Shown piece after piece: positions 5,410 to 42,662 of a stretch of DNA of 64,000 bases. Source of the DNA: Candidatus Omnitrophota bacterium (GTDB taxonomy: Bacteria > Omnitrophota > Omnitrophia > Omnitrophales > Aquincolibacteriaceae); assembly GCA_022709525.1 (NCBI GenBank), contig JAKLIQ010000001.1, positions 78,709 through 142,708 of the forward strand, in the 5' to 3' direction. The translations under genes were made by a program, and so were the position numbers. Position 1 is the first letter of the stretch, and each line of letters opens with the position of its first letter. The notes beneath the pieces were generated by a model that worked only from the letters and a program-made list of their open reading frames with translations, searched no databases and had not been told where the DNA came from.

Positions 5410-6723
5410 ATGAGGAATATACGAAGCGGTTTTTGGAGTTTTTGTTTGATCATGATGTATTTATCACCGGGGGTGGCGTTCGCCGAAGACAGTGAGATCG
5501 CCGCGCTGAAGGCGCAGATCGATACACTCACACGGAAGCTCGAGGCCATGGACAGCAAGATGATGACTATGGAAAAACCCGCTCCGGGAACGCAGGCGGT
5601 CTATATCCCGCCCGCGCCGGATGAAAAGAAAGGCTTCCTCCGCGCGATGGAGGACATCCAAATGGGCGGTTATGTGGAAGCCCAGTTCCAGAACAAAGTG
5701 GATCTGCCGCGTGGCACCGGCAATACGGGCCGTTCGCTGACCGATAAGGCCGCCGACACCTTCTCCATGAACGCGGCAAAGCTTTGGTTTGAAAAAGCCG
5801 CGAACCCGGAAGGCGGCGCCGGATTCCGTATCGATCTGATGATGGGAAGCGATGTGCAGTATTACTTCAACAATCTGACACGCGACAACGGAAGCACTTC
5901 CACCACGGCGTTCGCTTTTGAACAGGCCTATGTGCAATACATCGCGCCGCTTTGTTTCTGGTCCGACAGCAAGATCTTGCCGCATACGATCGACATCAAA
6001 GCCGGCCGGATGGTCACCTTGGCGGGCAATGAAGTGATCGAGGGGCCTTTTAACTGGAATATCAGCCGTTCGGTCTCTTTCGGTTACGCGATCCCGTTCA
6101 CGCATACCGGGGTGCGCGTTTCCTACAATCTCTTTAATGATTTCCTGACCGTTTATCACGGCGTCAATAACGGCTGGGATGTCGATGTCGACAATAACTC
6201 GTATAAAACGCTCGAGAACGCTTTCAGCTTCAGTCCATTCAAGAACACGAAGTGGACCACGGCGACCTATTTTGGTCCTGAAAATAATAACGCGAGCGGG
6301 GATAAGCGTTTCCTGGTCACGAACGTTCTCAGCTGGGACGCGACCGCAAAGCTCTCGTTTGTCGGAGAATTTGATTTCGGCAATCAAAACCGCGTCGACA
6401 CGGCCATGGATAATAATTTTGACACGGCTCAATGGTTTGATTATGCGGCCTATGCCCGCTACAAATTCACCGATAAGCTGGCCGCGGCTTACCGTTTCGA
6501 GCTCTTCGATGACAGCCGGCGTTACCGCAACTGGACCGGCGAGGGCGTGAACGGCGCTGCCCGGGACCTTGCGAATACGATCACGCTTGAGTACAAGCCT
6601 TACGAGAACATGATCGCGCGGGCGGAGTACCGGATCGATTACGCTCATGCCGACGACGGGCATGTGTTCGGCGGGAAACAACAGCAGAACACGCTCGGCG
6701 CTCAATTAAGCTACTTGTTCTAA
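5410..6723 (+). CDS. Outer-membrane beta-barrel porin-like protein with an N-terminal coiled-coil segment
   Basis: Signal peptide (MRNIRSGFWSFCLIMMYLSPGVAFA), then a coiled coil, then alternating amphipathic strands ending in a C-terminal ...LSYLF. RBS aagggagg precedes ATG 5410. It sits directly after glnK. Confidence 0.5.
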   Translation: MRNIRSGFWSFCLIMMYLSPGVAFAEDSEIAALKAQIDTLTRKLEAMDSKMMTMEKPAPGTQAVYIPPAPDEKKGFLRAMEDIQMGGYVEAQFQNKVDLPRGTGNTGRSLTDKAADTFSMNAAKLWFEKAANPEGGAGFRIDLMMGSDVQYYFNNLTRDNGSTSTTAFAFEQAYVQYIAPLCFWSDSKILPHTIDIKAGRMVTLAGNEVIEGPFNWNISRSVSFGYAIPFTHTGVRVSYNLFNDFLTVYHGVNNGWDVDVDNNSYKTLENAFSFSPFKNTKWTTATYFGPENNNASGDKRFLVTNVLSWDATAKLSFVGEFDFGNQNRVDTAMDNNFDTAQWFDYAAYARYKFTDKLAAAYRFELFDDSRRYRNWTGEGVNGAARDLANTITLEYKPYENMIARAEYRIDYAHADDGHVFGGKQQQNTLGAQLSYLF

Positions 6724-7425: not shown

Positions 7426-8589
7426 TTAGCTGTGGCCTGTTGTCTGTGGTCTGCGGTCTAGGAAATCGAAGATTTCTTTTGCCGCCCGTCTGCTCGCGCC
7501 CTTTTCCCCGAGTTTTTCTTTCACCTCCCGGAACTCTTCTCTCATTTTTTCATGCAGTTCCGGGCTTCGGAGGAAGACGCGCGCTTCATGGGCGAGGGTT
7601 TCGGGGTGGGCGTCCTGCTGGATGAACTCCGGGACCACGCGGGTATCCGCAAGAAGGTTCACAAGGCCCAAGTAGGGGACTTTGATGAGGTATTTCCCGA
7701 GCAAATAGGTGGACCAACTTGCTTTGTAAAGGAGGAAGAACGGCGTTCCGATCAGCGTCGCCTCAAGCGTGGCGGTCCCGGAGGCCACGAACGCAAAATC
7801 CATAGCTTTGACCAGTTCATAGAACGGGGTTTCCGGGCATGTCACCTTTACGGGCGAGGCCTGGAGGAGCGTGTCATAGATTTCGGGGCGCACATTGGCT
7901 GATCTTGAAATAAAGAAAACCGTTTCGGGGATGTCTTTTTGGAGGTAGGAGGCGGCTTTCAGCATGACCGGGAGGATGCGCCGCACCTCTTTTTCCCTTG
8001 AGCCGGAAAAAAGCCCGATCGCCATTTGCTCTTGGGAGATCCCGAGTTGAGAACGCAAAACGGCCGCGTCGGGGAGTTCCGGGATCGCATCCAGCAGGGG
8101 ATGGCCCACGAATTTCACCGCGACGCCTTCCTTTTCATAAAAATCCTTTTCGAACGGCAAGATCACAAGCATCTCACGGATATGTTTTTTAACGATATGG
8201 ATCCTGCGTTTTCCCCAGGCCCAAAGTTGCGGGGAAATATAGTAAAGGACAGGAGCGTTCGCGGAGATCTTTTTAGCGAGCCGGAGGTTAAAGGCCGGGG
8301 AATCGATCAAGACGATGGCGTCGGGTTTTTCCTTCCGGATGTTCCGGATCGTTTCGTGGAAGATCTCGAGGTATTTGAAATAATTCCGGAGCACATCGCC
8401 CAGCCCCAGCGCGGAGATCTTTGTCATATCATGGAAGACCCGCATGCCGGCCGCTTGCATTTTGGCGCCGCCGACGCCGCAGAAAACGGTACCGGGAGCA
8501 AGTTTCCGGATCTCGGAGATCAAATGGGCGCCGTGGAGATCGCCGGATGCTTCACAAGCAACAAGGAAGATTTTTTTAGGAGCCGTCAT
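7426..8589 (-). CDS. lpxB: Lipid-A-disaccharide synthase
   Basis: N-terminus KIFLVACEASGDLHGAHLI plus overall LpxB-like length and motifs. Confidence 0.85.
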   Translation of the reverse strand: MTAPKKIFLVACEASGDLHGAHLISEIRKLAPGTVFCGVGGAKMQAAGMRVFHDMTKISALGLGDVLRNYFKYLEIFHETIRNIRKEKPDAIVLIDSPAFNLRLAKKISANAPVLYYISPQLWAWGKRRIHIVKKHIREMLVILPFEKDFYEKEGVAVKFVGHPLLDAIPELPDAAVLRSQLGISQEQMAIGLFSGSREKEVRRILPVMLKAASYLQKDIPETVFFISRSANVRPEIYDTLLQASPVKVTCPETPFYELVKAMDFAFVASGTATLEATLIGTPFFLLYKASWSTYLLGKYLIKVPYLGLVNLLADTRVVPEFIQQDAHPETLAHEARVFLRSPELHEKMREEFREVKEKLGEKGASRRAAKEIFDFLDRRPQTTGHS

Positions 8590-9527
8590 TTGCTGGAAGA
8601 AGGCTTGGGCTGGTTCGCTTGAACTTTGCGGGCGATCTCAAGAGCAAGCTTGAGTGCGTCACGGGCGGCAGTATCGGGCCGGCCGAGGCTTTTCCCGGAG
8701 CGGATATTTGAAAGGAAAAATTTCAATTCTTCCTTCAGCGGCTCGGCTTTTTCGATGTCGACGGTTTCCTGCACGATCTCGGCGCCGTTCTTACGGAAGA
8801 TCTTGCAGGCCTGCGCGCCGTAATCGAGTGAAATGTAGGCGTCTTCCTGGAAGATCCGGATCTTGCGCTGTTTTTCGAACGTGAGGCGCGAAGCGGTGAT
8901 GTCGGCGACGGCGCCGTTCTTGAATTTCATGCGGACATTCGCGATATCTTCGAAGGGCGTAAGCACGTTCACGCCGATCGCGTCGAAGCTGGCGACCTGG
9001 GATTTCACAAGCCCGAGCACGATATCCAGATCATGGATCATGAGGTCCAGCACGACGCCGCAGTCATTGATGCGGCCGGTAAAAGGGCCCAGGCGGTGGA
9101 TCTCAAAAAAGCGGATGTTCTTGGCGATCTCCTCGATCCGTTTAAAGCCGGGATTATGGCGTTCGATGTGGCCGACCTGAAGCGCGCAGTTTTTTTTTCG
9201 CGCCAGCGCAAGAAGTTCATCCGCCTCTTCAAGCTTCAACGTGATGGGTTTTTCGATCAAAGTATGAATGCCGGCTTTGAGGAATTCCTTGGCGACGGCG
9301 TAATGGGTCGAAGTCGGGGTGGCGATACTGACGGCCTCGACTTTTCCGATCAATTCCAGGGGGTTTTGATAATAATGAGTTCCGAGCTCTCTGGCTTTTT
9401 CCTGCTTTGCGGGGTCACTGTCAGAGATGCCGACCAGTTCGGATTCAGCAAGTTCGCGGTAAATGCGGGCGTGTTCCTTACCAAGATGCCCAACCCCGAC
9501 CACACCGACTTTTAGCGCTTCTACCAT
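8586..9527 (-). CDS. Gfo/Idh/MocA family NAD-dependent oxidoreductase, possibly a GnnA-like UDP-GlcNAc 3-dehydrogenase
   Basis: N-terminal Rossmann fold VGVVGVGHLGKEHARIY and EKP motif. It overlaps the lpxB start by 4 nt, so the two are co-transcribed. The GnnA assignment is an inference from context. Confidence 0.6.
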   Translation of the reverse strand: MVEALKVGVVGVGHLGKEHARIYRELAESELVGISDSDPAKQEKARELGTHYYQNPLELIGKVEAVSIATPTSTHYAVAKEFLKAGIHTLIEKPITLKLEEADELLALARKKNCALQVGHIERHNPGFKRIEEIAKNIRFFEIHRLGPFTGRINDCGVVLDLMIHDLDIVLGLVKSQVASFDAIGVNVLTPFEDIANVRMKFKNGAVADITASRLTFEKQRKIRIFQEDAYISLDYGAQACKIFRKNGAEIVQETVDIEKAEPLKEELKFFLSNIRSGKSLGRPDTAARDALKLALEIARKVQANQPKPSSSK

Positions 9528-26632: not shown

Positions 26633-26730
26633 TTCCCCCCGAGCTTCTGTTATACTACCGCCCTGCTTCGAAGTCGATCTTTGTAACCTACGGCGCGGGG
26701 TGGAGCAGCTCGGTAGCTCGTTGGGCTCAA

Positions 26731-27153
26731 GTGGATACAAAACTCAAGTCAGACATAGCAGAAAGTGCCGTTCTTACCCGGCTTTTGAAAGAGGGATTTA
26801 GAGTTCTTAAACCCGTAGGCGACAGGTTGCCATACGACCTGGCCTTGGACATGGGTAAAAAACTTTTCAAGATCCAAGTCAAAAGCGCGTGGGGCAAGGA
26901 CGGCATCTACAATGTTGACAGCCGGCGGACCAAAACAAACCGGCGGAAAATGTTGCGAAGTCGTTATGCTGAAGACGACTTTGATTTTGCTGTGTTGTAT
27001 ATTGAGGATCTCGGTATTTTCTATGTGATGCCGCGGAATGTTTTTGATTCTTATAAAAGCGGGATCAGAATTGTAGAAAAGATCACAAGGCAGAGAACGC
27101 CGAGATCCGGAAAATATCGCGAAGCTTGGGATTTGTTGAAAAGGGCCGCTTAA
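26731..27153 (+). CDS. Intron-encoded putative homing endonuclease, 140 aa, possibly PD-(D/E)xK-type like I-Ssp6803I of the cyanobacterial tRNA-fMet intron
   Basis: The ORF fills the peripheral 5' part of the intron. Motif LPYDLALDMGKKLFKIQVKS is PD-(D/E)xK-like. Its GTG start lies 3 nt after the 5' splice site, so the true start is uncertain. Confidence 0.5.
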   Translation: MDTKLKSDIAESAVLTRLLKEGFRVLKPVGDRLPYDLALDMGKKLFKIQVKSAWGKDGIYNVDSRRTKTNRRKMLRSRYAEDDFDFAVLYIEDLGIFYVMPRNVFDSYKSGIRIVEKITRQRTPRSGKYREAWDLLKRAA

Positions 27154-27253
27154 CCGGAAACGGTTAAGGCAACACCTGTCAAACTCGGTGAACCCTGTCA
27201 GATGGGAATACCGAACCAAGCCTTACGGATCGTTCGTGAGGAAGGCGTAGAGA

Positions 27254-28981
<1,728 letters not shown>

Positions 28982-29227
28982 GATGACAGGCCTCCTTTCA
29001 GGCAGGGATCGAAAGCGCCAGCCCGGCGCTTTGATCGAGAAACGAATAATACACCCGCCGTCAAGTGGACGGAAGCCGTTCGCCCTTTCTGTTTTGCTAT
29101 CCAATGCCGAACCAGCCATTGCGCAAGCATAGCTAATGAGCCGTTCCGGGCATATTCCGGAGGCGGCTCGGGCATCTCAAAATCTTCGATGGTCAGATCT
29201 CTGGATTTATCAGCTCTATCCCGATCC

Positions 29228-30061
29228 TTATGTGCAGGATGGATCAGAGACAGCACCTCCCTTGTAGCGTTTATAGCGCTGTTTATAAAACTCTTCTTTC
29301 TCAAACCGGCGGAGTTCTGCTTCCGCCTTGTGGATTTCGTCGTACTCGTCAACGAAGTCCTCATCAAACTCAAGATAATTGTTCAAAACGAGTGTGCTGT
29401 TCTTTTTGTTGACGAAAGTTGTTTCTCCTTCGCGTCTGAGCAGTTCCTCCATCGTTGCGAAATAGAAACACTCCGGACAATGTTCAAGTTTCTTGAACCA
29501 CTCGATCATCGATTTTCTTTCCACGAGATAGAGAAAGGCGCTGATGCCCTCGTTTTTGACCCAGGTATCTATGAGCACCCGATCATAATACCGCTTACTC
29601 TTCAGCGTCCGTTCGATCTCGATCACAAAACTGTGTTTTCGGCCATCATCAGCCAGGCCATCCGGGACCTTTCTCCGTTCCGTCTTACTTTTCAACACGC
29701 GCTCAGATGTCCAGATGAGCCCCGGAGAACGCTCTAGGATAATACGCGCATCCGTGACCCAAACATCGTGCTCGTAGATTTTCAGGTCCACTCCATCCAG
29801 CGGTCGTAGTCCGTTCGACAGATCCAGGCTCCTCAGGTGCTTTACGCCTTTGGCGGTCGTGAGATAAAGCGTGTCATGACCGACCCTTGGCTTCACGGCT
29901 TTCAAATAACCCTGTCGCATCAGGAGATTCACTCTTCTTGCCGGGACCTTGTACATGCTCAGGCTCTCGGGGAAGAACTTCTTGGCGATATGCCTCAGGA
30001 GCAGAAACTTCTGCTCAAGGCACATCTTCAGGATCTCCGAATCTCTTTCTGTAATGATCAT
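29228..30061 (-). CDS. Hypothetical protein with N-terminal winged-helix-like region (possibly replication-relaxation family)
   Basis: N-terminal helix-turn-helix-like region ILKMCLEQKFLLLRHIAKKF...LMRQGYLK and an acidic C-terminus. It lies in the recombinase island. The family assignment is a guess. Confidence 0.3.
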   Translation of the reverse strand: MIITERDSEILKMCLEQKFLLLRHIAKKFFPESLSMYKVPARRVNLLMRQGYLKAVKPRVGHDTLYLTTAKGVKHLRSLDLSNGLRPLDGVDLKIYEHDVWVTDARIILERSPGLIWTSERVLKSKTERRKVPDGLADDGRKHSFVIEIERTLKSKRYYDRVLIDTWVKNEGISAFLYLVERKSMIEWFKKLEHCPECFYFATMEELLRREGETTFVNKKNSTLVLNNYLEFDEDFVDEYDEIHKAEAELRRFEKEEFYKQRYKRYKGGAVSDPSCT

Positions 30062-30235
30062 CCGCTACTTGTTCCTTATCTGATTTCGTGAGAGACATAT
30101 TAAAAATTGATCTGACGGTGGAGCGATCTGCGTCGTGTCATTTTTGTGATCTTCAAATCTCCGGTACTTCTTGGGCTTTAGCGCCGTGTTAGCAACCAGG
30201 CTTTAGACTGGTCTTGGTTTTTATTTATAATTTCA

Positions 30236-30587
30236 AATACCCCTCATGGGACATTGAGTTAAGGAGGGGGCGTTCAACGTTTGCGCACATTTTTATACTT
30301 GAAATAAATTTTCACGAACATCGATCTGATCCATTTAACCTGTCCGAAAGATCCCAAATTCTCCGGAAACCGTTCCGCAAGAAAATCATCAATTTCCCAA
30401 ACAAGCCTCTCATGGGAGGTCGAGTTACGACATGGTCGTTCACACCAAACGAACATTTCTAAGCTTGAAATAAATTTTTCAGCGATTTTGTCCGCCTTTC
30501 TTTTACCTTGATAACCCCTCATGGGAGGTCAATTTACGACATGGGTGTGACGCTTTTGGGAAGGTTTTTAAGCTTGAAATAAAGTTT
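30236..30587 (+). repeat. Three imperfect direct repeats of 75-80 nt (30236-30311, 30405-30479, 30514-30587), iteron-like
   Basis: Each unit has the form cctcatgggaggtcRaKttacgacatgg...cttgaaataaaKttt. Peptides encoded inside are not conserved between copies, so a DNA or RNA function is more likely. Confidence 0.6.
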
Positions 30588-31027
30588 ATCGCATAGCAAC
30601 TGCCACTCGGATAAAAGCTCCGGAGGGATTAAGGTCTTGATAGGTAAGAACCCAAAGAAGGAATCTTAAAGGTCGTCTTTTGTTTATGCCCGGTCCACCA
30701 GAGGACGGATCTGTCTAACGCGATGTGGCAGATAAGAACCGGGGAAAGTTAAGAGCATGGGGACATTCAAAACGATATATTTCTTAAAAACAGAAGAAAG
30801 GATTATCCCTATCCAGCCCAGATTCATTTCAACAGCTTGCCCGAAGCCCGTCACAATGCAGCCGACCACTCCATCTCGCTCCAACAGATTATGAGAGGGA
30901 GTGGTCGGGTGCACGCAACAAGGGCGAAGGGCAAGCGCTGATTGAACTTAAGTAGGGCTGGACTGGTGGAATCCATTCCCTCACTTCATTCCACCGACCT
31001 GACCCGATCGAAATCGGTCAAAAATGT

Positions 31028-31072
31028 GAATGGTATACTCGACTTTACAAATGGTATATCGAATGGTATACT
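31028..31072 (+). promoter_or_regulatory. Three tandem (G/A)AATGGTATA(C/T) boxes upstream of fic
   Basis: gaatggtatac, aaatggtatatc and gaatggtatact lie 40-85 nt upstream of the fic ATG. Three similar boxes lie at 32138-32181. Confidence 0.5.
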
Positions 31073-31113
31073 GATGTTGAAGCTAGACCGTTAACCGAAA
31101 CAGAGGTGCAACC

Positions 31114-32151
31114 ATGAATTCCTTCAAGAATGATAATCTCGAAATGCCTTTAAGCTCGGTTTGGCTGCTGAGCGGGATCTCGGAGTACAAAGGCAAGCAG
31201 GAACTTTACACAAAGCAGGCACCGCAGGTCCTTAAAACCCTTATTGAAATGGCGCTAATCGAAAGCGCGGAATCTTCCAACCGCATCGAAGGCGTCACAG
31301 TTGACCGGGAACGTCTTAAACCGCTCGTTATCGGTCATAGCAAGCCCCGGGACCGCTCTGAAGAGGAAGTGGCCGGATACCGCAAGGCCCTCGACCTGAT
31401 TCATAAAAAATACGACACCTTGCAGATCACTCCGGATCTTATCAAGGAACTGCATCGTTTATGCCGGGGTGAATCATGGGATGCCGGGAAGTGGAAGGAG
31501 AAGGATAACGACATTATCAAAAAATACCCCGATGGCCGCGTGGAAGTGATCTATAAGCCCGTTAGCGCGGCGAAAACACCGGAGGCCATGGAGCAACTGT
31601 GCCTTAGCTACAGACATAGCATCGATCAGCTGAGATACCCTTCGCTTTACGCCATCGCCTGCCTTGTTCTTGATTTCCTCTGCGTCCATCCTTTCCGGGA
31701 CGGGAACGGCAGGGTTTCCAGGCTTCTGACATTACTGGCGCTTTATCAACACGGGTTTATGGTGGGAAAATATATCAGCATCGAGCGCATTGTGGAGCAG
31801 TCCAAGGAAACGTATTACGAGACGCTCAACAAAAGCTCACAGCAGTGGCATGAGGCCAAACATGATGTCCTTCCGTGGTTTAATTATTTCCTGGGGACCA
31901 TTACCGCTGCCTACAAGGAATTCGAAGAACGCGCCAGCCATGCAAGCCCGGAACGGGGCGCCAAGACCGGCATTGTCGAGGCCGCGGTTGATCGGCAGCT
32001 TGGAGAATTCAGTATTTCCAATATTGAGCAAGAGTGTCCGAATGTCAGCCGGGTCATGATCAAAAAAGTTCTCAGCCAGATGAGCAACGCCAAAAAGATC
32101 AAATGCCTCGGCAAGGGCAAGTCAGCCAAGTGGTTGCGAATGGTATCCTAA
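31114..32151 (+). CDS. fic: Fic family protein (class II, with an internal inhibitory SxxxEG helix and a C-terminal winged-helix)
   Basis: Fic motif HPFRDGNGRVSR; inhibitory motif SAESSNRIEGV near the N-terminus. Confidence 0.9.
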   Translation: MNSFKNDNLEMPLSSVWLLSGISEYKGKQELYTKQAPQVLKTLIEMALIESAESSNRIEGVTVDRERLKPLVIGHSKPRDRSEEEVAGYRKALDLIHKKYDTLQITPDLIKELHRLCRGESWDAGKWKEKDNDIIKKYPDGRVEVIYKPVSAAKTPEAMEQLCLSYRHSIDQLRYPSLYAIACLVLDFLCVHPFRDGNGRVSRLLTLLALYQHGFMVGKYISIERIVEQSKETYYETLNKSSQQWHEAKHDVLPWFNYFLGTITAAYKEFEERASHASPERGAKTGIVEAAVDRQLGEFSISNIEQECPNVSRVMIKKVLSQMSNAKKIKCLGKGKSAKWLRMVS

Positions 32152-32181
32152 GTCTCGCGATGGTATATCAAATGGGATATT
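32138..32181 (+). promoter_or_regulatory. Second set of three ATGGTATA-like boxes, overlapping the fic stop and preceding nuc
   Basis: gaatggtatcc, gatggtatatc and aaatgggatatt lie immediately upstream of the ATG at 32187. Confidence 0.45.
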
Positions 32182-32186
32182 AACGA

Positions 32187-32723
32187 GTGCACATGCGAAA
32201 AAACATCTGCTGTATAGTTGTTCTGATCATTATTTTTCTCTCCATCCCCGCATCGTTGCAAGCCAAACAAACGGCCACCGATGAGCAGGTTTATTTTTCC
32301 CCTAAAGGTGGATGCACAGAGGCCATTGTCAAGAATCTGGATCAGGCCGAAAGATATGTGCTTGTTCAGGCATATTCCTTCACGTCGAAGCCCATTGCCG
32401 AAGCTCTCGTCGACGCGCACAAGCGCGGCGTGAAAGTAAAAGTGCTTTTGGACAAGAGTCAGCGGAATGGCAAAGGGAGCAAGCTCTCCCTATTGGCTGA
32501 GGCCGGGATACCTGTCAGCATTGACACCAAACACTCGATTGCTCACAATAAGGTTATGATTATCGACGGCGTTACTGTAATCACGGGTTCTTTCAATTTT
32601 ACCAGCGCCGCCGAAGACAAAAACGCCGAAAATCTTTTAGTCGTTAGAGATAAGGTTATCGCGAGGAAATACCGCAATAACTGGAACAAACATCAGAAGC
32701 ATTCCGAGCTGTATCAGATATAA
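32187..32723 (+). CDS. nuc: Secreted phospholipase-D superfamily endonuclease (Nuc-like)
   Basis: Signal peptide; HxK(x4)D motif IAHNKVMIIDG; size and organization like plasmid Nuc. Confidence 0.8.
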   Translation: MHMRKNICCIVVLIIIFLSIPASLQAKQTATDEQVYFSPKGGCTEAIVKNLDQAERYVLVQAYSFTSKPIAEALVDAHKRGVKVKVLLDKSQRNGKGSKLSLLAEAGIPVSIDTKHSIAHNKVMIIDGVTVITGSFNFTSAAEDKNAENLLVVRDKVIARKYRNNWNKHQKHSELYQI

Positions 32724-32801
32724 AATATGCGGCGAGATAAAAACCGATGTATTCCTTGAATGACAGAGATAGAGGAATTGAAAATGAGGAGGAAATGCCA
32801 A

Positions 32802-33530
32802 ATGAAAAAAGCGATTTTAGCGTTGTGTGGGATAATGTTATTAATGCTCGAAACATTTACGCCCTGCTGTGTTGCCGAGGAAAGCAAAAGATATACGGAT
32901 GAATTTTTATTCGTCAATTCTTATCTTGAGTGCTTAGAAAATTATATATCTATTCAAACATATGATGGTCTTATGGTAACAGGAAAGGCCAATTATTCTT
33001 CCGAAGAAGTTGTCAACAGCGCTTTTATGAAACAATTAAAAAAAGAACAGGAATTCATTTCGGAAATGATTCGTGCAATGGGAAAATATTCCGATTCTCC
33101 GGTAGATAGCATCAAGAACGCCTCCAATACAATTTTGGAAAAATATCAGAAAATGCAAGCTCTGAACACCAAAGCGCAAGATGCATATTTTCATGTGAAG
33201 ACGGGGCAATTTAAGGCGGGCATTTTGACCGGCAGCGAACTTTTCGATGAAAAGCAAGCTATTGAAAGCGGCATGTTTTTTGAGGAAGAAAATTTAATGA
33301 GACAAATTTTGTTTCCCAAAGGTAGCTCTGTAATGAAAATAACTGCCGAAGAGAAAAAACAGCTTCAAGAAAAAATAAGAAGCTTAAAACAGATCAGCCT
33401 TGCCAAGGAGCATTCTATTGGCGAAGGAGAGTATTTAGTGGCCGAGGGAGGACAGTTTCTCAAATTTTTTTTACAGGCTTTCCAACGATTTATAGATATT
33501 AATTTTCCTTGTTTGAAAACAGTAGCGTGA
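32802..33530 (+). CDS. Secreted hypothetical protein, low GC
   Basis: Signal peptide MKKAILALCGIMLLMLETFTPCCVA. RBS gaggagg lies 9 nt upstream. The alternative start is 32784. Confidence 0.4.
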   Translation: MKKAILALCGIMLLMLETFTPCCVAEESKRYTDEFLFVNSYLECLENYISIQTYDGLMVTGKANYSSEEVVNSAFMKQLKKEQEFISEMIRAMGKYSDSPVDSIKNASNTILEKYQKMQALNTKAQDAYFHVKTGQFKAGILTGSELFDEKQAIESGMFFEEENLMRQILFPKGSSVMKITAEEKKQLQEKIRSLKQISLAKEHSIGEGEYLVAEGGQFLKFFLQAFQRFIDINFPCLKTVA

Positions 33531-33627
33531 AATAGCTGTGGTGTTTTAGTTCCGCTTATGCATCGCTTATTTTAAAACGAAACTCCAGAATTTTGAGCGA
33601 GGTAGGCCCAAAAGGAGATGCTATAAA

Positions 33628-34311
33628 ATGACTATGGAAGCGCACTGTTTCCAAAACGTTCAATGGATTAAATTTATCTTGCCGATCTTTGCGACATTTC
33701 TTGGCGCTTGGCTCGCTTTTTTCTTGCAAAATCGTAGGGATGCTAAAAAACAGGAAAAAACCAACTATGGAGTACTTTTAAAAACACAGGCGTTATTTTA
33801 TGAATATTTTGAAGCTATTTATTCGGTCAAAAAAGATTTTTTAGACCAGCATGCAAAAGACGCAGAGAGATCAACAAGGGTTAAGCATATTAGTCTTTGC
33901 CAAAAGTTCTCTGAGCTTGATTTCGAAGGCATATCCTTTATCCTTACAACAAAAAATCCGGACTTGTTTGGTGATATTGTATGCACCTATAGAAAGTGCG
34001 TTTCGGCTATAGAAGCCATTAATGAGCGCAATAAGCAATACGGAAAATACAGCGGAGGGATTGCCAAAAGTATCGATTTGGGAAGTGGCAAATCTCAGGT
34101 AGATTTAATATTTCTTAGAGATTTTACAGACATTATGTATAGGGAAACGGATCAGGTGCTACAACGCATTAAACAAATCGACGGTGAATTACAGCAATTC
34201 ATAAAAGAAAAATTTAAAGGGAAACATGCCCTGAAAGTTACTTTTGTCGAGACTGCGACGCAATGCGCCAAAGGAAATGCAGACGGAGGCGGTCATGAAA
34301 CCGTCGCTTAA
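33628..34311 (+). CDS. Membrane-anchored hypothetical protein (one N-terminal TM helix)
   Basis: RBS aaggag; TM segment FILPIFATFLGAWLAFFL; no recognizable domain. Confidence 0.4.
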   Translation: MTMEAHCFQNVQWIKFILPIFATFLGAWLAFFLQNRRDAKKQEKTNYGVLLKTQALFYEYFEAIYSVKKDFLDQHAKDAERSTRVKHISLCQKFSELDFEGISFILTTKNPDLFGDIVCTYRKCVSAIEAINERNKQYGKYSGGIAKSIDLGSGKSQVDLIFLRDFTDIMYRETDQVLQRIKQIDGELQQFIKEKFKGKHALKVTFVETATQCAKGNADGGGHETVA

Positions 34312-35161
34312 AAATAAGATATTAAACTATATCGCTATGGGGTTTATTTTTTCCCCATGTTTATTGCCCCCTTTTCTTTGGATTAGATTGCTTGCGGTTG
34401 ATATCGATGTTAAGTTGAAAATAATGTGCCTTGCCTTTTTCAGCGCCGTCGTTCCTCTTATGATTGTCATTCTCGGTTTTGCCTGGGTTTGTTTTTTTGC
34501 AGTTTGCCTGTTCTTTAAAAATGTTTTCGACGAAACATTTCGTAATAAGCATGATTCATATCGAGATAATGATAAATGGCTCAGTGAAACCTTCAGTGAT
34601 GTTCATAAGCTTTTTAATAAGTGGGATAAATCAGAGAGGTGGAAAAAAACCAACGCAACGCTTCTGTGTGTCTTTTTTTTATCGGGAGCAGGAATTTCTT
34701 GGATTGATTTCGACCATAGAATTAAAGTGAAAACCGATAATCTTTCAAACATTGTTTCCATGAACATCATTGGGGATATCGATTTGCCAGTTTCTAAGCA
34801 AGGCCTTGTAAAACAGCGTGGTCTCCCAAAATCTGTTGATGTCCGATACCGGGGCGATGGGAAGAAATACAAGTTTGAAACATTGAGTTATGACTGGGCG
34901 GCCGGGCAAATGGAGGTTGTTTTCGTCAATGACAACTATGCGGATGGAATTGTTCGATATAAGCCGACGGATTTAAGCGTAAAAGTTTTGTTGCGTGATG
35001 TGTCGCACGTAAAGCAAAAGCCTTTGAAGTCTTATACCATTAGCGTCGTGAATACTAACGGCAAAACTTTATTAATTCGTGTCCAAAAAAATCAAAAAAT
35101 AAGTTCGATCACATATTTTGGTTCTTCCGCAAAGAAAGGGGCGATAAGACTGCTCCGATAA
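34295..35161 (+). CDS. Polytopic membrane protein with a C-terminal beta-rich soluble domain, hypothetical
   Basis: It overlaps the upstream ORF by 17 nt. GGAGG lies 5 nt before the ATG. There are 4-5 predicted TM helices. Confidence 0.4.
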   Translation: MKPSLKNKILNYIAMGFIFSPCLLPPFLWIRLLAVDIDVKLKIMCLAFFSAVVPLMIVILGFAWVCFFAVCLFFKNVFDETFRNKHDSYRDNDKWLSETFSDVHKLFNKWDKSERWKKTNATLLCVFFLSGAGISWIDFDHRIKVKTDNLSNIVSMNIIGDIDLPVSKQGLVKQRGLPKSVDVRYRGDGKKYKFETLSYDWAAGQMEVVFVNDNYADGIVRYKPTDLSVKVLLRDVSHVKQKPLKSYTISVVNTNGKTLLIRVQKNQKISSITYFGSSAKKGAIRLLR

Positions 35162-35214
35162 GGGATCATTTTCGATATAACTATCAAAGAAGTTGTTTTT
35201 ATCTGGAGCAAGTT

Positions 35215-35691
35215 ATGGGTCATTGGGATCGCAAGAATGTTCCGCAAAAAGGATGGGAATGCATTGATTTCTATGATTTATGTGCCGATGCGAATGAAGT
35301 TTATGCAACATGTGAAATGTGTGGGCAAGAGCGAATACGATATGTTCATGTAATGCGGCATCCAGATTTTTATGACGACTTGTTGGTTGGCTGTGTATGT
35401 GCCGGAAAAATGTCAGATGACTATGTCAATCCTGAAAAACACGAAAAGATTCTGAGTAATCGATCAAAACGTCGAAAAAGTTGGCTGAGCCGAACTTGGC
35501 GAGTATCGGCAAAGGGTAATGATTTTCTTAATGTTAAGGGGCATAACGTAACCATTTTTCCAGCAAAGTATCGATTAGGCCATTGGTGTTTTAAGATAGA
35601 CGATGATTTTAATCAAAATACCTATGAAGACAAAAATCGCGCAAAATTGGCGGCATTTGACTTGCTGCAAAAATATAACGAAAAAATTTAG
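35215..35691 (+). CDS. Cys-rich (CxxC...CxC) zinc-finger-like hypothetical protein
   Basis: CEMCGQ...GCVCAGK cysteine cluster. It is the last gene of an apparent three-gene operon. Confidence 0.4.
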   Translation: MGHWDRKNVPQKGWECIDFYDLCADANEVYATCEMCGQERIRYVHVMRHPDFYDDLLVGCVCAGKMSDDYVNPEKHEKILSNRSKRRKSWLSRTWRVSAKGNDFLNVKGHNVTIFPAKYRLGHWCFKIDDDFNQNTYEDKNRAKLAAFDLLQKYNEKI

Positions 35692-35712
35692 TTAATCGAG
35701 ATGGTTAGGTCC

Positions 35713-35950
35713 ACGGTTTCAAACCGCAAATTCTCCTCGGCCCAATATTTCGCGAAATGTTCCCCACTTTTCCGGATTTCACGCTCGACGGCCCGATTAA
35801 GAACAGATATAATCACCCAGCTGTTTTAGGGAAAATTTCAAGGTGGGCTTAAGAGGTTCTTACGGGCTGCGGACGGGATTGCGGGGAAAGATCAACGGTT
35901 TCAAAAGCGAGAGCTTCCTCGGTCCAGTATTTGGCGAAATGTTCCCCCGC
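35713..35950 (-). pseudogene. Two diverged copies (35713-35768 and 35893-35950) of a decayed coding fragment. Minus-strand translations are ...EHFAKYWAEENLRFET... and ...EHFAKYWTEEALAFET...
   Basis: A 56-nt direct repeat whose differences are concentrated at codon third positions when read on the minus strand. Neither copy has a start codon or a long ORF. Confidence 0.4.
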
Positions 35951-35962
35951 TACCAATTGAGA

Positions 35963-36000
35963 AACCCGCCAGGGATTTATTCCTTGGCGGGTTTTTCTTT
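35963..36000 (+). terminator. Rho-independent terminator
   Basis: aaacccgccagg-gatttattc-cttggcgggttt followed by tttcttt. Confidence 0.6.
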
Positions 36001-37997: not shown

Positions 37998-40900
37998 ATG
38001 AAAAAAGCGTTTTCCTTCTTTATTGCTTTAACCCTCGTTTTCTCTCCAGTCATGTCCGCATTCGGAGCTACCGCCGTGACGCAGGATGCGTCCGGCACTT
38101 GGTCCTCAAGCGGAAATCACCTCGATGATGGAACCATTGCCGAAGCTTTGACTACCGCTGATCTTACCATAGGGGCCGGCCGAACCATTACGGTTCAAAA
38201 CAATAACGTGGCGGATGATAATAGCGGGAATAAGAATACGTTCGTGCTTGGAACCGTTTCCAACGCGGGAGGAACGGGCAGCTTGATCATAAATACCGGC
38301 GCTAGCGTTGTCGGCGACGGCACTCTTAATGTCACGGTGGGAGCGGCGACGATCGGCGGATCTTTTACGGTAGAAAACTTGGGGTCTTCCACTAAATCGA
38401 CGACAGTTAGCATTACAAATGGATTGACGCTTAACGGCGCCGGAAATTTAACCGTTGCCAACTATGCTTCTACGGACAGCAAGACGGTCGATTTGACGGT
38501 GGGTGGTGACTTCAGCACCGTCACATCATCCGTAATGATCACTTCTTCTGTAAATGCGGTAACAGGCGCTAATTCAACTTTAATCCTAAATGGCGCCTCG
38601 ATTAGCATTGCCGGCGGCGTTACTCTTTATGACAATGCCGGCGGCTCTTCTATTCTGACTTTTAACCGTGCCGGTGACCAGACCATCACCGCCGCGATCA
38701 ATGGAGGCGGCGCGGGACAAGGAGCATTAAATGTAACCGGCACGGGGGATACAACATTTAACAGCGCAGTTGGTACCACCTCTTTGAAGGAGATCAACAT
38801 TGCCGCCGGATCGGGGAAGATAACCACATTTGGGGACATTGCAAATGCAACCACTATTACCATGACCGGCGCCGGAACAGCGCAGTTTGACGACGCAGTT
38901 ACTGCAACAGACCTCAACCTTAGCTCAACAGGAACTGTTATTTTGAACGCAACGTTGACGGGAGATATTAATTTTTCCGATGATGGAACCGTGCAATTGG
39001 CTGATGGAGAAAATATTACCGGAAACATTGCTACCAGCAACGGCGGAGAGGGAAATCTGGTTTTGAAAGGAGCGCATGTTGTTGGCGGCACTGTTGGTAC
39101 GTCCTCAGCCGCCCTTAATACGATTACAGCGGACGGTTTGGGGACATTGACCGATCTTCAAGGGGATGTTTATGCCGGCACTCTTAATTTTGGCGCGGAC
39201 GGCGAAGTCCAGGTCAACGGCACAGCGGGTTTTGAGACCGTTGATAATACGACAGGCAGCGACCAAAGCGGCACTTTGACTTTTCTTGGCGCCGCCACCA
39301 TCGCCGGGAATGTCGGAGATAGTAATTCGCTTAAGGCGGTCAATGCCTATGGGGCAGGAACTATTTCAGGCGGCGACGGCGTAGATTTTCAAGGCGATTT
39401 CAATGTGGATGTCCTGAATTTTTACGGTGACGGCGAGGTCCGCATAGCCGGCAGCGCCACTTTGACCGGAAATATCGCCAATAATACCGGCGGCGATAAC
39501 ATGGGAACCGTTATTTTTGAAGGTAATGCGACCATTGCGTCCGGGATCGGCCTGAATACGGCATGTTTAAAAATCGTCGATATCAGCGGTGCCGTGGGCA
39601 CAACGGTCACCGTTAATGATGATCTTTACGCCCAAGATGTCTTGATCGATGCCGGCGAGCTCTATATGAACGGGGATTTGAGGACCTCCTCGCTTTCGAC
39701 GGTAAAATTCCAGGGTGACGGCCTCTTGACCCTAGCCAATGGCGGCTATCAGATCGTTACCAGCATTGTCAATGACACGGGCACGGATAAACAAGGCACG
39801 CTCGCTTTTGAAGGCGATGGAACGGTCACGAATTCCATCGGCGCTTCCGGAGCCGCTTTAAAGGCCATCAACGCCAATGGCAATGACACGGTCTATTTGC
39901 AGGGCGATGTTTATGGCGATACGGTCAGTTTTGGGAATGACGGAGAGCTTGATATCAGCGGGACCGCCGAATTGGGCACCGTGACCAACGATAGCGGAAG
40001 CGATGGCTTCGGCACTTTAACCTTCCAGGGAAGTGGTACCATCACGGGAGACGTCGGTGTTTCCGGCGCGAGCTTGAACACGATCAACGCAAACGGTTCC
40101 GGCGCAACGCTTGATCTGCAAGGAACTGTTTATGTGAGCGCTTTGAACTTTGGCAACGACGGCACGATCAATCTTGCGGACGGAAAAAATCTTAACGGCG
40201 CCGTCACCAATAATTCGGGGTCGACGGCCGGCACGTTGAATTTTCTTGGGGATTCTACCGTATCAGGGGATGTCAGCGCTTCCGGGGCCGAACTTAATCA
40301 AGTAGGTGTGAATGGGGCCGCCGGCACCAATGTTCTTTTCAAGGGCGATGTGTATGCCACAACATTGAATTTTGGCGGCGATGGATCCTTCACGATGGGG
40401 ACTAAAGAGAATATTTATGCCGATGTCACCACTGCGGCAGACGGCACCGGAGAACTTATTTTTAAAGGATCTTCGAACGTGAATGGCAACGTAGGCGTTT
40501 CCGGAACAGCCGTCAGGTTGATCACTCTGAGCGGCGGTTCCGGCCGCGATGTCCTCTTCAAAGGAGATGTCTATGCGGCAACATTGAATTTTGACGATGA
40601 CGGGTCGGCGACGATGGGCACCAATGAAACCCTTAACGCTAATGTGACCACTTCCAATGATGGCGCGGGAGAATTGATCTTTAAAGGAAGCGGCACTGTC
40701 ACGGGAGACGTTGGGGCAATCGGAGCCGTCCTTAGGCAGATCAGCGCGAACGGCGGATCGGGAAGGAACGTGCTTTTAGATGGCGATATTTTTGCAACGA
40801 CGCTTGATTTTGGGGACGATGGTACCGTCCAAATACAGGACGGGAAGAATCTTAACGCCACCGTGACGGCCAGCGCCGGGGCTGGAACGGGGACGCTCAC

Positions 40901-42662
40901 GTTTCTCGGTTCGACCACGACCGGCGGCGATATCGGCGCGATCGGCAACGAATTACGAGCCGTTAATTTTAACGGCGGTTCCTCCAATCTCGGCCACGAC
41001 ATTGCGGCCAACACCGTGGCCATTGATACGGGCGCCACCCTTACCCTGACCGGCGACCGGACCATCACGGGCGATCTGACGCTTGCGGGTTCCGGCGGTG
41101 CGGGAACGGGAACTCTCGAGCTTGGTGCGAACTTATTGACGCTTTCCGGAACTTATACGCAGGACGCGACCGCGCAAGTGTTGAGCTTATCTATTACCGA
41201 TGCGACAACTTACGGAAAGATCGACGCTTCCGCGACAGGAACGGCCGCTTTTAGCGCTGGAACGGTCAACGTGACCCTTGGCGGCGCGACGATCGCCAAT
41301 GGAACCCAGTTCACGATCTTTGATGCGGCCGGGGGCACCGTTACGACGGCCGGGATCACCGTGGCGGTTGTCGATAGCACGACAGTCACATTTAATCTTA
41401 GCAGCACGGGCGATGATCTGATCCTGACGGCCGTGACCGGACGGGGCGGAACTTTTCAAAGCGCCTCCACCAACGGAAATATCGAGGCCGTCGGCGCGGT
41501 GTTTGATCAGATCGAATCGGGAGGCGGCGGCACCGGCGACATGCAAAATGTTATTGATACGCTTAACGGCATGACAAGCGATGAGGAAGTCGCAAATGCC
41601 ATGGGGACCATGATGCCCGACATGAGCTCCGGGTCGATGCAGGCCAGTCTCAATCTGTCAGGGCAAAATTTCACGATGATCAGCAACCGCTTGGGCGGTA
41701 TGCGGAACGGTTTTCTGGGTGCCGGCGTCTCAGCCGGAGAAATGCTAAACGGCGTGGGCGTGTGGTTACAGGGTCTTGGCAGTCACATGAAACAGGATCC
41801 CCGCCGCGGGGTTGAAGGTTATCAAGCCAATCTGTTCGGAACCACGGTCGGCGCCGACAAAGTAATAGACCGGCATTTTCGCGCGGGTTTAGCCGGCAGT
41901 TACGGCTTTGCGCGCGTGAAATCCAAAACGGCGGGGAGCCCATCGGATGATATCAACAGCTTCCAAGGGACGATCTACGGGAGCTACGATTCTCTAGACC
42001 TCTGCGAAGCCCGTCAGAGCGGCCGGAAATCCTACGAAGCGGTGCGCAGCCAGGTCGAGAATTCCTGGTATGCGGACGGCATGTTCGCTTTTACGCAAAA
42101 CAATTATGATAGCCGCCGCGAGATCTGGCTGACTCCGGCAACAAAACGCGTCGCAAAAGCGGATCATCATGCTCAGCAATATTCCACCCAGTTCGAGACC
42201 GGTTACACCTTTGTATTCGAAAAAACAAAGGCGTTCGAATTTACACCGTTCGCGTCCTTGGGTTACAACTATCTGTATATGAACAAGTATAAGGAAGACG
42301 GCGCAAATGCTTTGAATCTTACGGTGGATGGGGAAGGCTACAATCAGCTCGAGCAGGGACTCGGGACAAAGCTCGCGTATCCGATCGCGGCAGAGAAAGT
42401 CGGGACATTCATTCCTTCGGTGAAGGCCGCCTGGCTTTACGATTATATTGCCGATGCATTCGAAACGACCGCAAGTTTTGCCGGCGGAGGGCCCGCCTTT
42501 AGCACCCAGGGAGCGAAACCCGCGAAGAACGGGATCCTCTTCGGCGCCGAGCTGGCATTCTTAAACAAAGGGAACATCACAGCGACTGGAAATTGGGATA
42601 TGGAGCTCAAAGACGAATATATGAGCAATACCTATTACGGTACCGTCCGCTACGATTTTTAA
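37998..42662 (+). CDS. Autotransporter (type Va) with a roughly 1,250-aa repeat-rich passenger and a C-terminal beta-barrel translocator
   Basis: Signal peptide; roughly 10 tandem repeats of about 70 aa (...GDVYA.TLNFG.DG...T..N..G...G.L.F.G...); C-terminal domain with MGTMMPDMSSG...GVWLQGLGSHMKQD...ending YYGTVRYDF. Confidence 0.75.
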   Translation: MKKAFSFFIALTLVFSPVMSAFGATAVTQDASGTWSSSGNHLDDGTIAEALTTADLTIGAGRTITVQNNNVADDNSGNKNTFVLGTVSNAGGTGSLIINTGASVVGDGTLNVTVGAATIGGSFTVENLGSSTKSTTVSITNGLTLNGAGNLTVANYASTDSKTVDLTVGGDFSTVTSSVMITSSVNAVTGANSTLILNGASISIAGGVTLYDNAGGSSILTFNRAGDQTITAAINGGGAGQGALNVTGTGDTTFNSAVGTTSLKEINIAAGSGKITTFGDIANATTITMTGAGTAQFDDAVTATDLNLSSTGTVILNATLTGDINFSDDGTVQLADGENITGNIATSNGGEGNLVLKGAHVVGGTVGTSSAALNTITADGLGTLTDLQGDVYAGTLNFGADGEVQVNGTAGFETVDNTTGSDQSGTLTFLGAATIAGNVGDSNSLKAVNAYGAGTISGGDGVDFQGDFNVDVLNFYGDGEVRIAGSATLTGNIANNTGGDNMGTVIFEGNATIASGIGLNTACLKIVDISGAVGTTVTVNDDLYAQDVLIDAGELYMNGDLRTSSLSTVKFQGDGLLTLANGGYQIVTSIVNDTGTDKQGTLAFEGDGTVTNSIGASGAALKAINANGNDTVYLQGDVYGDTVSFGNDGELDISGTAELGTVTNDSGSDGFGTLTFQGSGTITGDVGVSGASLNTINANGSGATLDLQGTVYVSALNFGNDGTINLADGKNLNGAVTNNSGSTAGTLNFLGDSTVSGDVSASGAELNQVGVNGAAGTNVLFKGDVYATTLNFGGDGSFTMGTKENIYADVTTAADGTGELIFKGSSNVNGNVGVSGTAVRLITLSGGSGRDVLFKGDVYAATLNFDDDGSATMGTNETLNANVTTSNDGAGELIFKGSGTVTGDVGAIGAVLRQISANGGSGRNVLLDGDIFATTLDFGDDGTVQIQDGKNLNATVTASAGAGTGTLTFLGSTTTGGDIGAIGNELRAVNFNGGSSNLGHDIAANTVAIDTGATLTLTGDRTITGDLTLAGSGGAGTGTLELGANLLTLSGTYTQDATAQVLSLSITDATTYGKIDASATGTAAFSAGTVNVTLGGATIANGTQFTIFDAAGGTVTTAGITVAVVDSTTVTFNLSSTGDDLILTAVTGRGGTFQSASTNGNIEAVGAVFDQIESGGGGTGDMQNVIDTLNGMTSDEEVANAMGTMMPDMSSGSMQASLNLSGQNFTMISNRLGGMRNGFLGAGVSAGEMLNGVGVWLQGLGSHMKQDPRRGVEGYQANLFGTTVGADKVIDRHFRAGLAGSYGFARVKSKTAGSPSDDINSFQGTIYGSYDSLDLCEARQSGRKSYEAVRSQVENSWYADGMFAFTQNNYDSRREIWLTPATKRVAKADHHAQQYSTQFETGYTFVFEKTKAFEFTPFASLGYNYLYMNKYKEDGANALNLTVDGEGYNQLEQGLGTKLAYPIAAEKVGTFIPSVKAAWLYDYIADAFETTASFAGGGPAFSTQGAKPAKNGILFGAELAFLNKGNITATGNWDMELKDEYMSNTYYGTVRYDF

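Follow-up and report, generated by a model that had tools for sequence, protein, structure and literature searches.

Three genes at the edge of a mobile island

The window (the whole stretch of DNA that was analysed, 64,000 nt from a Candidatus Omnitrophota assembly) contains a low-GC island that ends in three consecutive open reading frames (ORFs), here called ORF1, ORF2 and ORF3. The original prediction treated these as a module, and tentatively as an undescribed phage-defence or conflict system. ORF1 (33628-34311, plus strand) encodes 227 amino acids (aa), with one N-terminal transmembrane (TM) helix, a predicted four-helix bundle and an 18-aa C-terminal tail. ORF2 (34295-35161 from its ATG, plus strand; 288 aa) encodes a predicted polytopic membrane protein whose last TM segment is followed by a conserved C-terminal domain (~150 aa). 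ORF3 (35215-35691, plus strand; 158 aa) encodes a predicted soluble protein consisting of a Cys/His N-domain, a long basic helix and a C-terminal beta-beta-beta-alpha domain.

The positions and tight packing of the three ORFs are as originally described, with a 17-nt overlap between ORF1 and ORF2 (34295-34311) and a 53-nt gap between ORF2 and ORF3. Each start is preceded at 5-10 nt by a Shine-Dalgarno-like motif (AGGAG at 33613-33617, 10 nt ahead of the ORF1 ATG; GGAGG at 34285-34289, 5 nt ahead of ORF2; GGAG at 35205-35208, 6 nt ahead of ORF3), so the suggestion of a plausible ribosome-binding site for each gene holds. Hydropathy scanning gives one TM segment in ORF1 (residues 13-34), a long hydrophobic block (12-78) and a further segment (121-139) in ORF2, and no TM segment in ORF3, which agrees with the description of ORF1 as membrane-anchored and ORF2 as polytopic. 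The CxxC...CxC cluster reported for ORF3 (CEMCGQ...GCVCAGKM) is present as well, and its four cysteines prove to be conserved (see below). None of the three proteins matches a family in Pfam, PADLOC, PHROG or NCBIfam searches, the PADLOC-DB v2.0.0 search being carried to E values of 1, and searches of the PDB sequences with ORF3 and ORF2 profiles gave chance matches only. The three ORFs are genuine genes rather than chance ORFs, because each has homologues with conserved columns and because AlphaFold2 models reach a predicted local distance difference test score (pLDDT) of 94 for ORF3 and 75 for ORF1. Exact copies of all three proteins were also found on contigs of Candidatus Omnitrophota metagenome-assembled genomes (MAGs).

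The GC content is 0.375-0.445 across 30-36 kb as against approximately 0.53 in the surrounding DNA, which confirms the low-GC setting. From left to right, the gene order is UvrB, an ORF of the PDDEXK_5 family, a large serine recombinase and a 277-aa protein (both on the minus strand), a Fic protein, a phospholipase D (PLD) family nuclease, a 256-aa protein and ORF1-3; to the right of ORF3 lie an exosortase-associated protein (minus strand) and then MurB. The island is an integrative element of about 8.6 kb (27388-35955), located at the 3' end of an initiator tRNA gene. Its integrase is the large serine recombinase (27254-29119, minus strand; Pfam Resolvase, Recombinase and Zn_ribbon_recom), which is encoded at the left border. 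The last 12 nt of the tRNA gene, CCCCCGCTACCA, form the core of the left attachment site (attL; 27376-27387, plus strand), and a reading of the sequence finds them repeated exactly at 35944-35955, the core of the right attachment site (attR). The features by which tRNA-integrated islands are recognised are thus all present, namely a recombinase at the border, a tRNA target, a repeat of the tRNA 3' end and a deviant composition.

The right end contains two copies of a 59-nt arm, which are 78% identical and 182 nt apart. The first (35707-35765, plus strand) is followed by a degenerate core, CCCCACTTTTCC, and the second (35889-35947) runs into the attR core, the two together spanning 35889-35955 (plus strand). 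A contig from another metagenome (L099) carries a copy of the segment from Fic to ORF3 that is 99% identical to the window. Here (L099 3660-3760) there is a single 59-nt arm 3' of ORF3, ending in ...GAAATGTTCCCCCGCTACC and fused directly to CCCCCGCTACC, after which comes an unrelated flank with a different hairpin. Because this contig has the same arm and core followed by unrelated sequence, the island ends at the att core and occurs between at least two different flanks. The earlier placement of the three genes in a mobile island is therefore upheld by the serine recombinase, the att repeats, the low GC content and the second flank. The 59-nt repeats would be recombinase-arm or att remnants, and the second arm in the window is probably the remnant or scar of an earlier related insertion, tandem or successive. 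Three independent assemblies (L002, L003 and L004) all break at window position 35856, between the two arm copies. A reading of the repeats as pseudogene fragments (the minus strand reads GEHFAKYW..FETVDL) was rejected on account of the direct fusion of the L099 copy to the att core.

Just beyond attR lies a strong intrinsic terminator (35959-35997, plus strand; -37.9 kcal/mol, z = -7.2), whose hairpin is followed by a U run. It had been taken as the terminator of the three-gene module. The strong hairpin is indeed there, but it is more simply explained as the displaced terminator of the tRNA gene: it begins 4 nt past the CCA of attR and 268 nt past the ORF3 stop codon, and its place immediately behind the tRNA 3' end at attR makes it probably a part of the tRNA gene rather than of ORF1-3. 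Most likely, then, this is the original tRNA terminator, moved rightwards by the island. The element has a hairpin of its own (27397-27445) beside the replacement tRNA 3' end. According to this scheme, the large serine recombinase would insert the element at the 3' end of the intron-containing initiator tRNA gene; the element would supply a replacement 3' end at attL, and the original 3' end with its terminator would be pushed to 35944-35997 at attR. The recombinase ORF itself crosses attL and runs on, for about 44 codons, through the tRNA 3' exon to the last part of the intron (27254-27390, minus strand). Since it reads across attL without stopping inside the island, the C-terminal tail of the recombinase depends on the integration state.

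The element resembles other tRNA-targeting serine-recombinase islands. It has a recombinase gene at one end beside a tRNA whose 3' end recurs at the far end, its GC content is below that of the host, it carries cargo of defence type (Fic and PLD), and it occurs in two flanks. It differs from them in that the target initiator tRNA gene already holds a predicted group I intron, in the 12-nt length of the repeat, in the entry of the recombinase ORF into the tRNA gene and in the tandem partial second right end.

Separate distributions of the three gene families

Loci encoding ORF3 relatives were compared at 151 places, made up of 80 genome loci (the best 80 of 397 ORF3-relative stretches, with up to 10 kb per side), 64 viral contigs and 7 plasmid or phage records. 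Relatives of ORF1 or ORF2 were detected by tblastn near an ORF3 relative in none of the 151 (80 genome loci; 71 viral, plasmid and phage loci), and the 256-aa protein encoded upstream of ORF1 likewise gave no tblastn match in the best 80 of the 397 genome loci. Seen from the other two genes the result is the same: none of the four contexts of ORF1 relatives examined contains a relative of ORF2 or ORF3, and none of the five contexts of ORF2 relatives examined (L100-L106) contains a relative of ORF1 or ORF3. All three genes, ORF1, ORF2 and ORF3, were seen together only where the island itself is nearly identical (L001-L006 and L099). The three-gene module of the original prediction is accordingly not borne out, since ORF1 and ORF2 relatives are missing from all of the ORF3 loci and occur without the other two genes, and since the ORFs are not conserved as a unit outside near-identical island copies.

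ORF1 has ten relatives in the protein search, and all those with a named source are from Omnitrophota. One stands alone among metabolic genes (L087); others are the last of a string of small ORFs in an island with resolvase, helix-turn-helix (HTH) and PLD genes, where the gene is start-stop coupled to an unrelated 205-aa gene (L089-91); and one is accompanied by small ORFs and, downstream, a DUF6804 protein (L092). For the closest relative (82% identity), the next gene begins 224 nt past the stop codon and there is no overlap. Nine aligned relatives stop near residue 209, and ORF1 of the window continues for 18 residues more (TATQCAKGNADGGGHETVA), a tail that is found in 0/9 of these relatives and that AlphaFold2 leaves disordered (pLDDT ~32). 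The overlap of ORF1 with ORF2, which had suggested coupling, is due to this tail, which the relatives lack. The model and the single TM segment suggest a membrane-anchored four-helix bundle on the cytoplasmic side. In the L089 island (5686-6339 and 8001-8654), a second 217-aa gene matches the ORF1 relative in length, and there are also a resolvase, an HTH gene and a PLDc_2 gene; this layout of recombinase, PLD and small unknown genes resembles that of the window island, although the proteins are otherwise unrelated.

ORF2 is rarer still in the indexed protein search, which returned only a self match. Exhaustive phmmer searching of 1.84 billion representatives gave nine matches. Six relatives, of 122-314 aa and mostly membrane proteins, have in common the C-terminal ~150 residues (29-47% identity). 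The ORF2 relatives represent about 6 distant families. In the contexts examined (L100-L106), the gene either has unrelated neighbours or stands isolated amid housekeeping genes. A trimmed ORF2 alignment recovered nothing from viral contigs, and from metagenomes only the self copy and one 1.1 kb contig. The loop at residues 76-120 is very basic and lies between hydrophobic segments, from which we infer that the conserved C-terminal domain probably faces outward, into the periplasm. Two neighbours of ORF2 relatives were considered as equivalents of the other genes and rejected for want of tblastn similarity: a 218-aa gene before one relative (L101) as an equivalent of ORF1, and a 160-aa gene after another (L103) as an equivalent of ORF3.

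The family of ORF3 is of a different order of breadth. A word-indexed protein search gave 56 relatives, and with one genome per species (185,579 species-level genomes) at least 397 stretches encode a relative, in many phyla. Relatives are also present in 64 IMG/VR contigs, 45 plasmids and 4 GenBank phages. The carriers include islands resembling integrative and conjugative elements (ICE-like islands), conjugative plasmids (IncC/pAsa4-type and Ti/Sym-type) and temperate phages.

The ORF3 family and the readings of the locus

In an alignment of 44 homologues, residues C33, C36, H45, H49, C60 and C62 of ORF3 are invariant, which includes all four cysteines of the predicted cluster; D21 is also invariant and D69 nearly so. 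The AlphaFold2 model comprises the N-domain, the long basic helix and the C-terminal beta-beta-beta-alpha domain, and places strands 43-48 and 56-58 between C33-x2-C36 and C60-x-C62. Two conserved ligand pairs thus flank a beta-hairpin, as is characteristic of zinc ribbons and treble clefs, and this predicted metal site makes zinc binding plausible. Pfam matches among the 44 members are weak (OapC in five, Zn_Ribbon_TF in two). The C-terminal domain is predicted to be weakly AP2-like in its order of strands and helix, and the last helix, Y-T-x-D-E-A-K-L-A-A-F-D, aligns with F-E-T-A-E-D-A-A-L-A-Y of AtERF1. The hhalign probability for the ORF3 profile against AtERF1 is only 1%, however, and neither ORF3 nor any of the 44 family members matches AP2 (Pfam PF00847) at E values up to 5; one relative bears the UniRef name 'AP2 domain-containing'. 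HNH-AP2 homing endonucleases of phages and cyanobacteria have a layout that resembles that of ORF3, with a metal-binding N-domain and an AP2-like C-domain. As to the nuclease itself, no Pfam HNH match was obtained for ORF3 or the 44 members, hhalign against the annotated HNH protein of phage Rivra gave 0.1%, and the helix has no conserved Asn or His in the 44-sequence alignment, despite the invariant H45 and H49. The model is consistent with nucleic-acid binding by ORF3, in which an N-domain stabilised by metal and the AP2-like C-domain would both take part. Going by the alignments, the conserved core would be the Cys/His N-domain with the basic helix, and the C-terminal domain may be exchangeable. 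Many Rhizobium and Agrobacterium plasmid matches (H19-H34; for example L176 5977-6480) cover only ORF3 residues 2-115/122.

The genes on either side of ORF3 relatives are hypervariable, and many of them are defence genes. The counts that follow come from the best 80 of the 397 genome loci, which are phylogenetically non-independent and have no control set. WYL/BrxR genes are found near the ORF3 relative at 20 of these loci, JetBCD at 11, HsdM at 11, DUF3223/HamC2-like genes at 8, PsyrT at 7 and AbiJ_NTD3 at 6, and at least one of the six families lies within 6 kb at 48/80. Matches of the neighbour clusters are strong (type I methyltransferase, 7.6e-153; JetD, 1.8e-136; PsyrT, 9.4e-275; DUF3223/HamC2, 7.3e-83; AbiJ_NTD3, 1.5e-49), and WYL/BrxR and ADP-ribosylglycohydrolase were matched too. 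Among same-strand neighbours, 31/51 upstream and 34/52 downstream are within 100 nt of the ORF3 relative.

Individual loci illustrate this variety. In Cupriavidus, the order is BrxR-BrxB-BrxC-PglX (BREX), an HD protein, the ORF3 relative, SACS/NOV_C and a NERD helicase. In a locus of Planctomycetota, an integrase and two further genes precede the ORF3 relative, and an AAA_13 ATPase and a gene that faintly matches HEPN come after it. In one of Omnitrophota, the relative is preceded by a PLD-SNF2 helicase, an MmeI-type methyltransferase, DUF4747 and two more genes, and is followed by DUF2130, HNH and PIF1. On pAsa4 the relative occurs with an AAA ATPase and a UvrD helicase, and on a Ti plasmid it lies directly 3' of a CBASS-like operon with patatin, CD-NTase and ThiF-family genes. 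In Agrobacterium phage Rivra two small minus-strand genes separate it from the integrase, and it is the first plus-strand gene that follows these two. WYL-domain BrxR/CapW regulators offer a parallel, as small predicted nucleic-acid binders that recur beside many defence systems rather than one, and a WYL/BrxR gene is within a few genes of the ORF3 relative at the 20 loci counted above. The two differ in that there is no relation in sequence or fold, ORF3 having a Cys/His metal site and not a winged-HTH-WYL architecture. As far as neighbouring genes can tell, the association of the ORF3 family with defence genes appears strong, in a qualitative sense that is not a statistic. Of the original conflict or defence setting, then, what stands is the residence of the ORF3 family in defence islands and the SoFic-like Fic and PLD genes of the window; the part that falls is the assignment to a three-gene system.

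Fic genes lie at approximately +1.3 to +4.7 kb from ORF3 relatives at L018, L021, L022, L026, L032, L033, L049 and L050, and further ones are near ORF3 or ORF2 relatives (one of the latter) at L095 (17529-18662), L104 (6163-7116) and L177 (8648-9997). Because orientation and distance vary, and Fic is common in islands, this recurrence may be only a matter of shared island cargo.

We consider ORF1-3 to be real genes and the last three, unlinked cargo genes of a tRNA-inserted integrative element, rather than a functional three-gene system, with a probability of roughly 0.7. They are read as separate cargo because their families are distinct and differently distributed. The element carries as cargo the MobC-like 277-aa protein, the SoFic-like Fic protein, the PLD nuclease, the 256-aa protein and ORF1-3, of which the last three would have arrived, or would persist, separately. 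ORF3 would bind nucleic acid and act alone, as a defence-island regulator or sensor or possibly a small nuclease, and not as a partner of ORF1 and ORF2, which would be envelope proteins of narrow distribution.

Several points weigh against this account. For the island, no empty site was recovered (the expected empty junction is ...GGTTCAAATCCTGCCCCCGCTACCAATTGAGAAACCCGCC...), the att repeat is short at only 12 nt (serine recombinases require only a 2-bp core), and it is unusual for a recombinase ORF to enter the tRNA gene and intron by some 44 codons. For the separateness of the genes, the readable contexts of ORF1 and ORF2 relatives are a handful, many of them on short contigs. A pair may yet be conserved among close Omnitrophota, around the closest ORF3 relatives (P0002, P0003 and P0005, 63-70% identity) or 3' of the 82% ORF1 relative. 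Moreover, the three proteins could work together in this island even though they are not conserved as a unit. For ORF3, the link to defence is one of guilt by association among non-independent loci with no control set.

Of the alternatives, the one that survives best is that the ORF3 family consists of single-gene defence or anti-defence factors, such as small nucleases that depend on zinc or proteins that inhibit host immunity, with ORF1 and ORF2 as bystanders. Its carriage by ICE-like islands, conjugative plasmids and phages of many phyla and its place among defence systems are in keeping with this, as are the invariant H45, H49 and D21 and near-invariant D69 alongside the four Cys; by analogy, the beta-hairpin and then helix between the Cys pairs could represent the topology of a beta-beta-alpha-metal nuclease. 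We regard it as rather unlikely in this specific form. The broader proposal, that ORF3 represents an undescribed, widespread family with a new combination of zinc-binding folds that acts alone in phage- or plasmid-host conflict (in defence, in anti-defence or as a shared immune regulator), is offered tentatively, as a possibility well short of even odds. A weaker variant would make ORF3 a conserved component with swappable adjacent partners, ORF2 being the partner in this island.

An operon-encoded conflict system confined to this lineage, in which ORF3 would be a zinc-finger sensor or regulator controlling ORF1 and ORF2 as membrane effectors, is improbable. The genes do share a strand, each has a Shine-Dalgarno-like motif, and the 17-nt overlap and 53-nt gap give the appearance of an operon; small membrane proteins accompanied by a putative soluble sensor, within a mobile island and next to Fic and PLD genes, also recall membrane-effector abortive-infection systems. 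The ORF3 family lives in defence islands, and its variable and often close same-strand neighbours fit a conserved component with interchangeable partners. Set against these, the trio does not co-occur at the 151 ORF3 loci or in any ORF1 or ORF2 context, the overlap stems from an ORF1 tail absent in its relatives, no PADLOC model is matched, and the neighbours of ORF3 relatives are known systems, complete and self-sufficient, and not one recurring partner. Least probable of all is that ORF1, ORF2 and the secreted proteins upstream serve the element's envelope needs (entry exclusion or help in transfer) and have nothing to do with phage defence: there is a run of envelope-directed products (the signal-like segment of the PLD nuclease, the hydrophobic N-terminus of the 256-aa protein and the TM segments of ORF1 and ORF2), the island encodes a MobC-like protein and conjugative plasmids typically carry periplasmic Nuc-type PLD nucleases, but Pfam, PADLOC, PHROG and NCBIfam searches gave no similarity to known exclusion or transfer proteins, and relatives of ORF1 and ORF2 are also present in non-mobile settings, amid metabolic or housekeeping genes.

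The reading of ORF1-3 as unlinked cargo is deflationary, in that what looks like a tidy operon on the island's edge becomes an accretion of unrelated genes whose overlap and terminator are otherwise explained, and pursuing the three as a defence candidate would be wasted effort. ORF3 is worth keeping. It belongs to an unnamed family that has no relative in Pfam, PADLOC or the PDB, yet has a confidently predicted fold and six invariant Cys/His residues, and that recurs between genes of BREX, Wadjet, CBASS, type I restriction-modification, PsyrT and Abi-type systems. Because the family is represented in hosts that can be cultured (Cupriavidus, Aeromonas, Agrobacterium together with its phage Rivra, and E. 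coli with an IncC plasmid), its role in defence islands is directly testable there, unlike in an uncultured omnitrophote.

Other island genes, the split tRNA and the right flank

The 277-aa protein (29228-30061, minus strand) is weakly similar to MobC or replication-relaxation proteins (NCBIfam NF041423, 2.9e-8, where the score of 33 bits does not reach the cut-off of 200; PHROG 9996, 5.9e-7). Between its gene and Fic are three imperfect direct repeats of about 70 nt (30240-30587, no strand assigned), with spacings of 166 and 109 nt, which may be binding sites or an origin of transfer (oriT). An 82-aa ORF called by the gene finder overlaps these repeats and may be spurious. The originally noted Fic/nuclease pair is real: it consists of a SoFic-like Fic-domain protein (31114-32151, plus strand; Pfam Fic, 2e-14; PADLOC SoFic, 1.2e-37) and a PLD-family, Nuc-like nuclease (32187-32723, plus strand; Pfam PLDc_2, 4.8e-29), which has a signal-like hydrophobic segment at residues 1-28 and matches DrmC-type models in PADLOC (2.6e-14). 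The 256-aa protein (32760-33530, plus strand) is hydrophobic in its N-terminal segment and matches no family in Pfam, PADLOC, PHROG or NCBIfam. It and the PLD nuclease are probably secreted.

The target of the island, the initiator tRNA(CAU) gene (26694-27387, plus strand), is split into exons at 26694-26727 and 27345-27387 by a predicted group I intron of 617 nt (26728-27344, plus strand), which interrupts the gene between U33 and C34. The 5' part, CGCGGGGTGGAGCAGCTCGGTAGCTCGTTGGGCT, ends at 26727, and the 3' part, CATAACCCAAAGGTCGCAGGTTCAAATCCTGCCCCCGCTACCA, corresponds to 27345-27387. A default ARAGORN run missed this intron-split tRNA, and the program with intron search (-i) gave a 77-nt tRNA with a 617-nt intron. 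The Rfam model Intron_gpI (RF00028) matches a core at 27125-27309 with 45.7 bits (E 3e-10), the gathering score of 50 not being reached, and the Rfam scan also detects a tRNA-like 3' end just downstream of this core. In the predicted splicing, U precedes the 5' splice site (26727/26728) and G precedes the 3' splice site (27344/27345). The anticodon stem, GGG:CCC, is characteristic of initiator tRNAs.

Within the intron is an ORF for a PD-(D/E)XK endonuclease (26731-27153, plus strand) that matches PDB 2ost over its whole length (4.4e-44). We take this PDB entry to be I-Ssp6803I, which is the homing endonuclease that belongs to the tRNA-fMet intron of Synechocystis. An intron-split initiator tRNA with an I-Ssp6803I-like ORF, an arrangement mainly described for cyanobacteria, is thus found here in an Omnitrophota MAG; close homologues of I-Ssp6803I are said to be generally cyanobacterial (PMC3384342).

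Just to the right of the island, past MurB, the window encodes a 1554-aa autotransporter (37998-42662) whose passenger is highly repetitive, with repeats rich in Gly, Thr and Asn.

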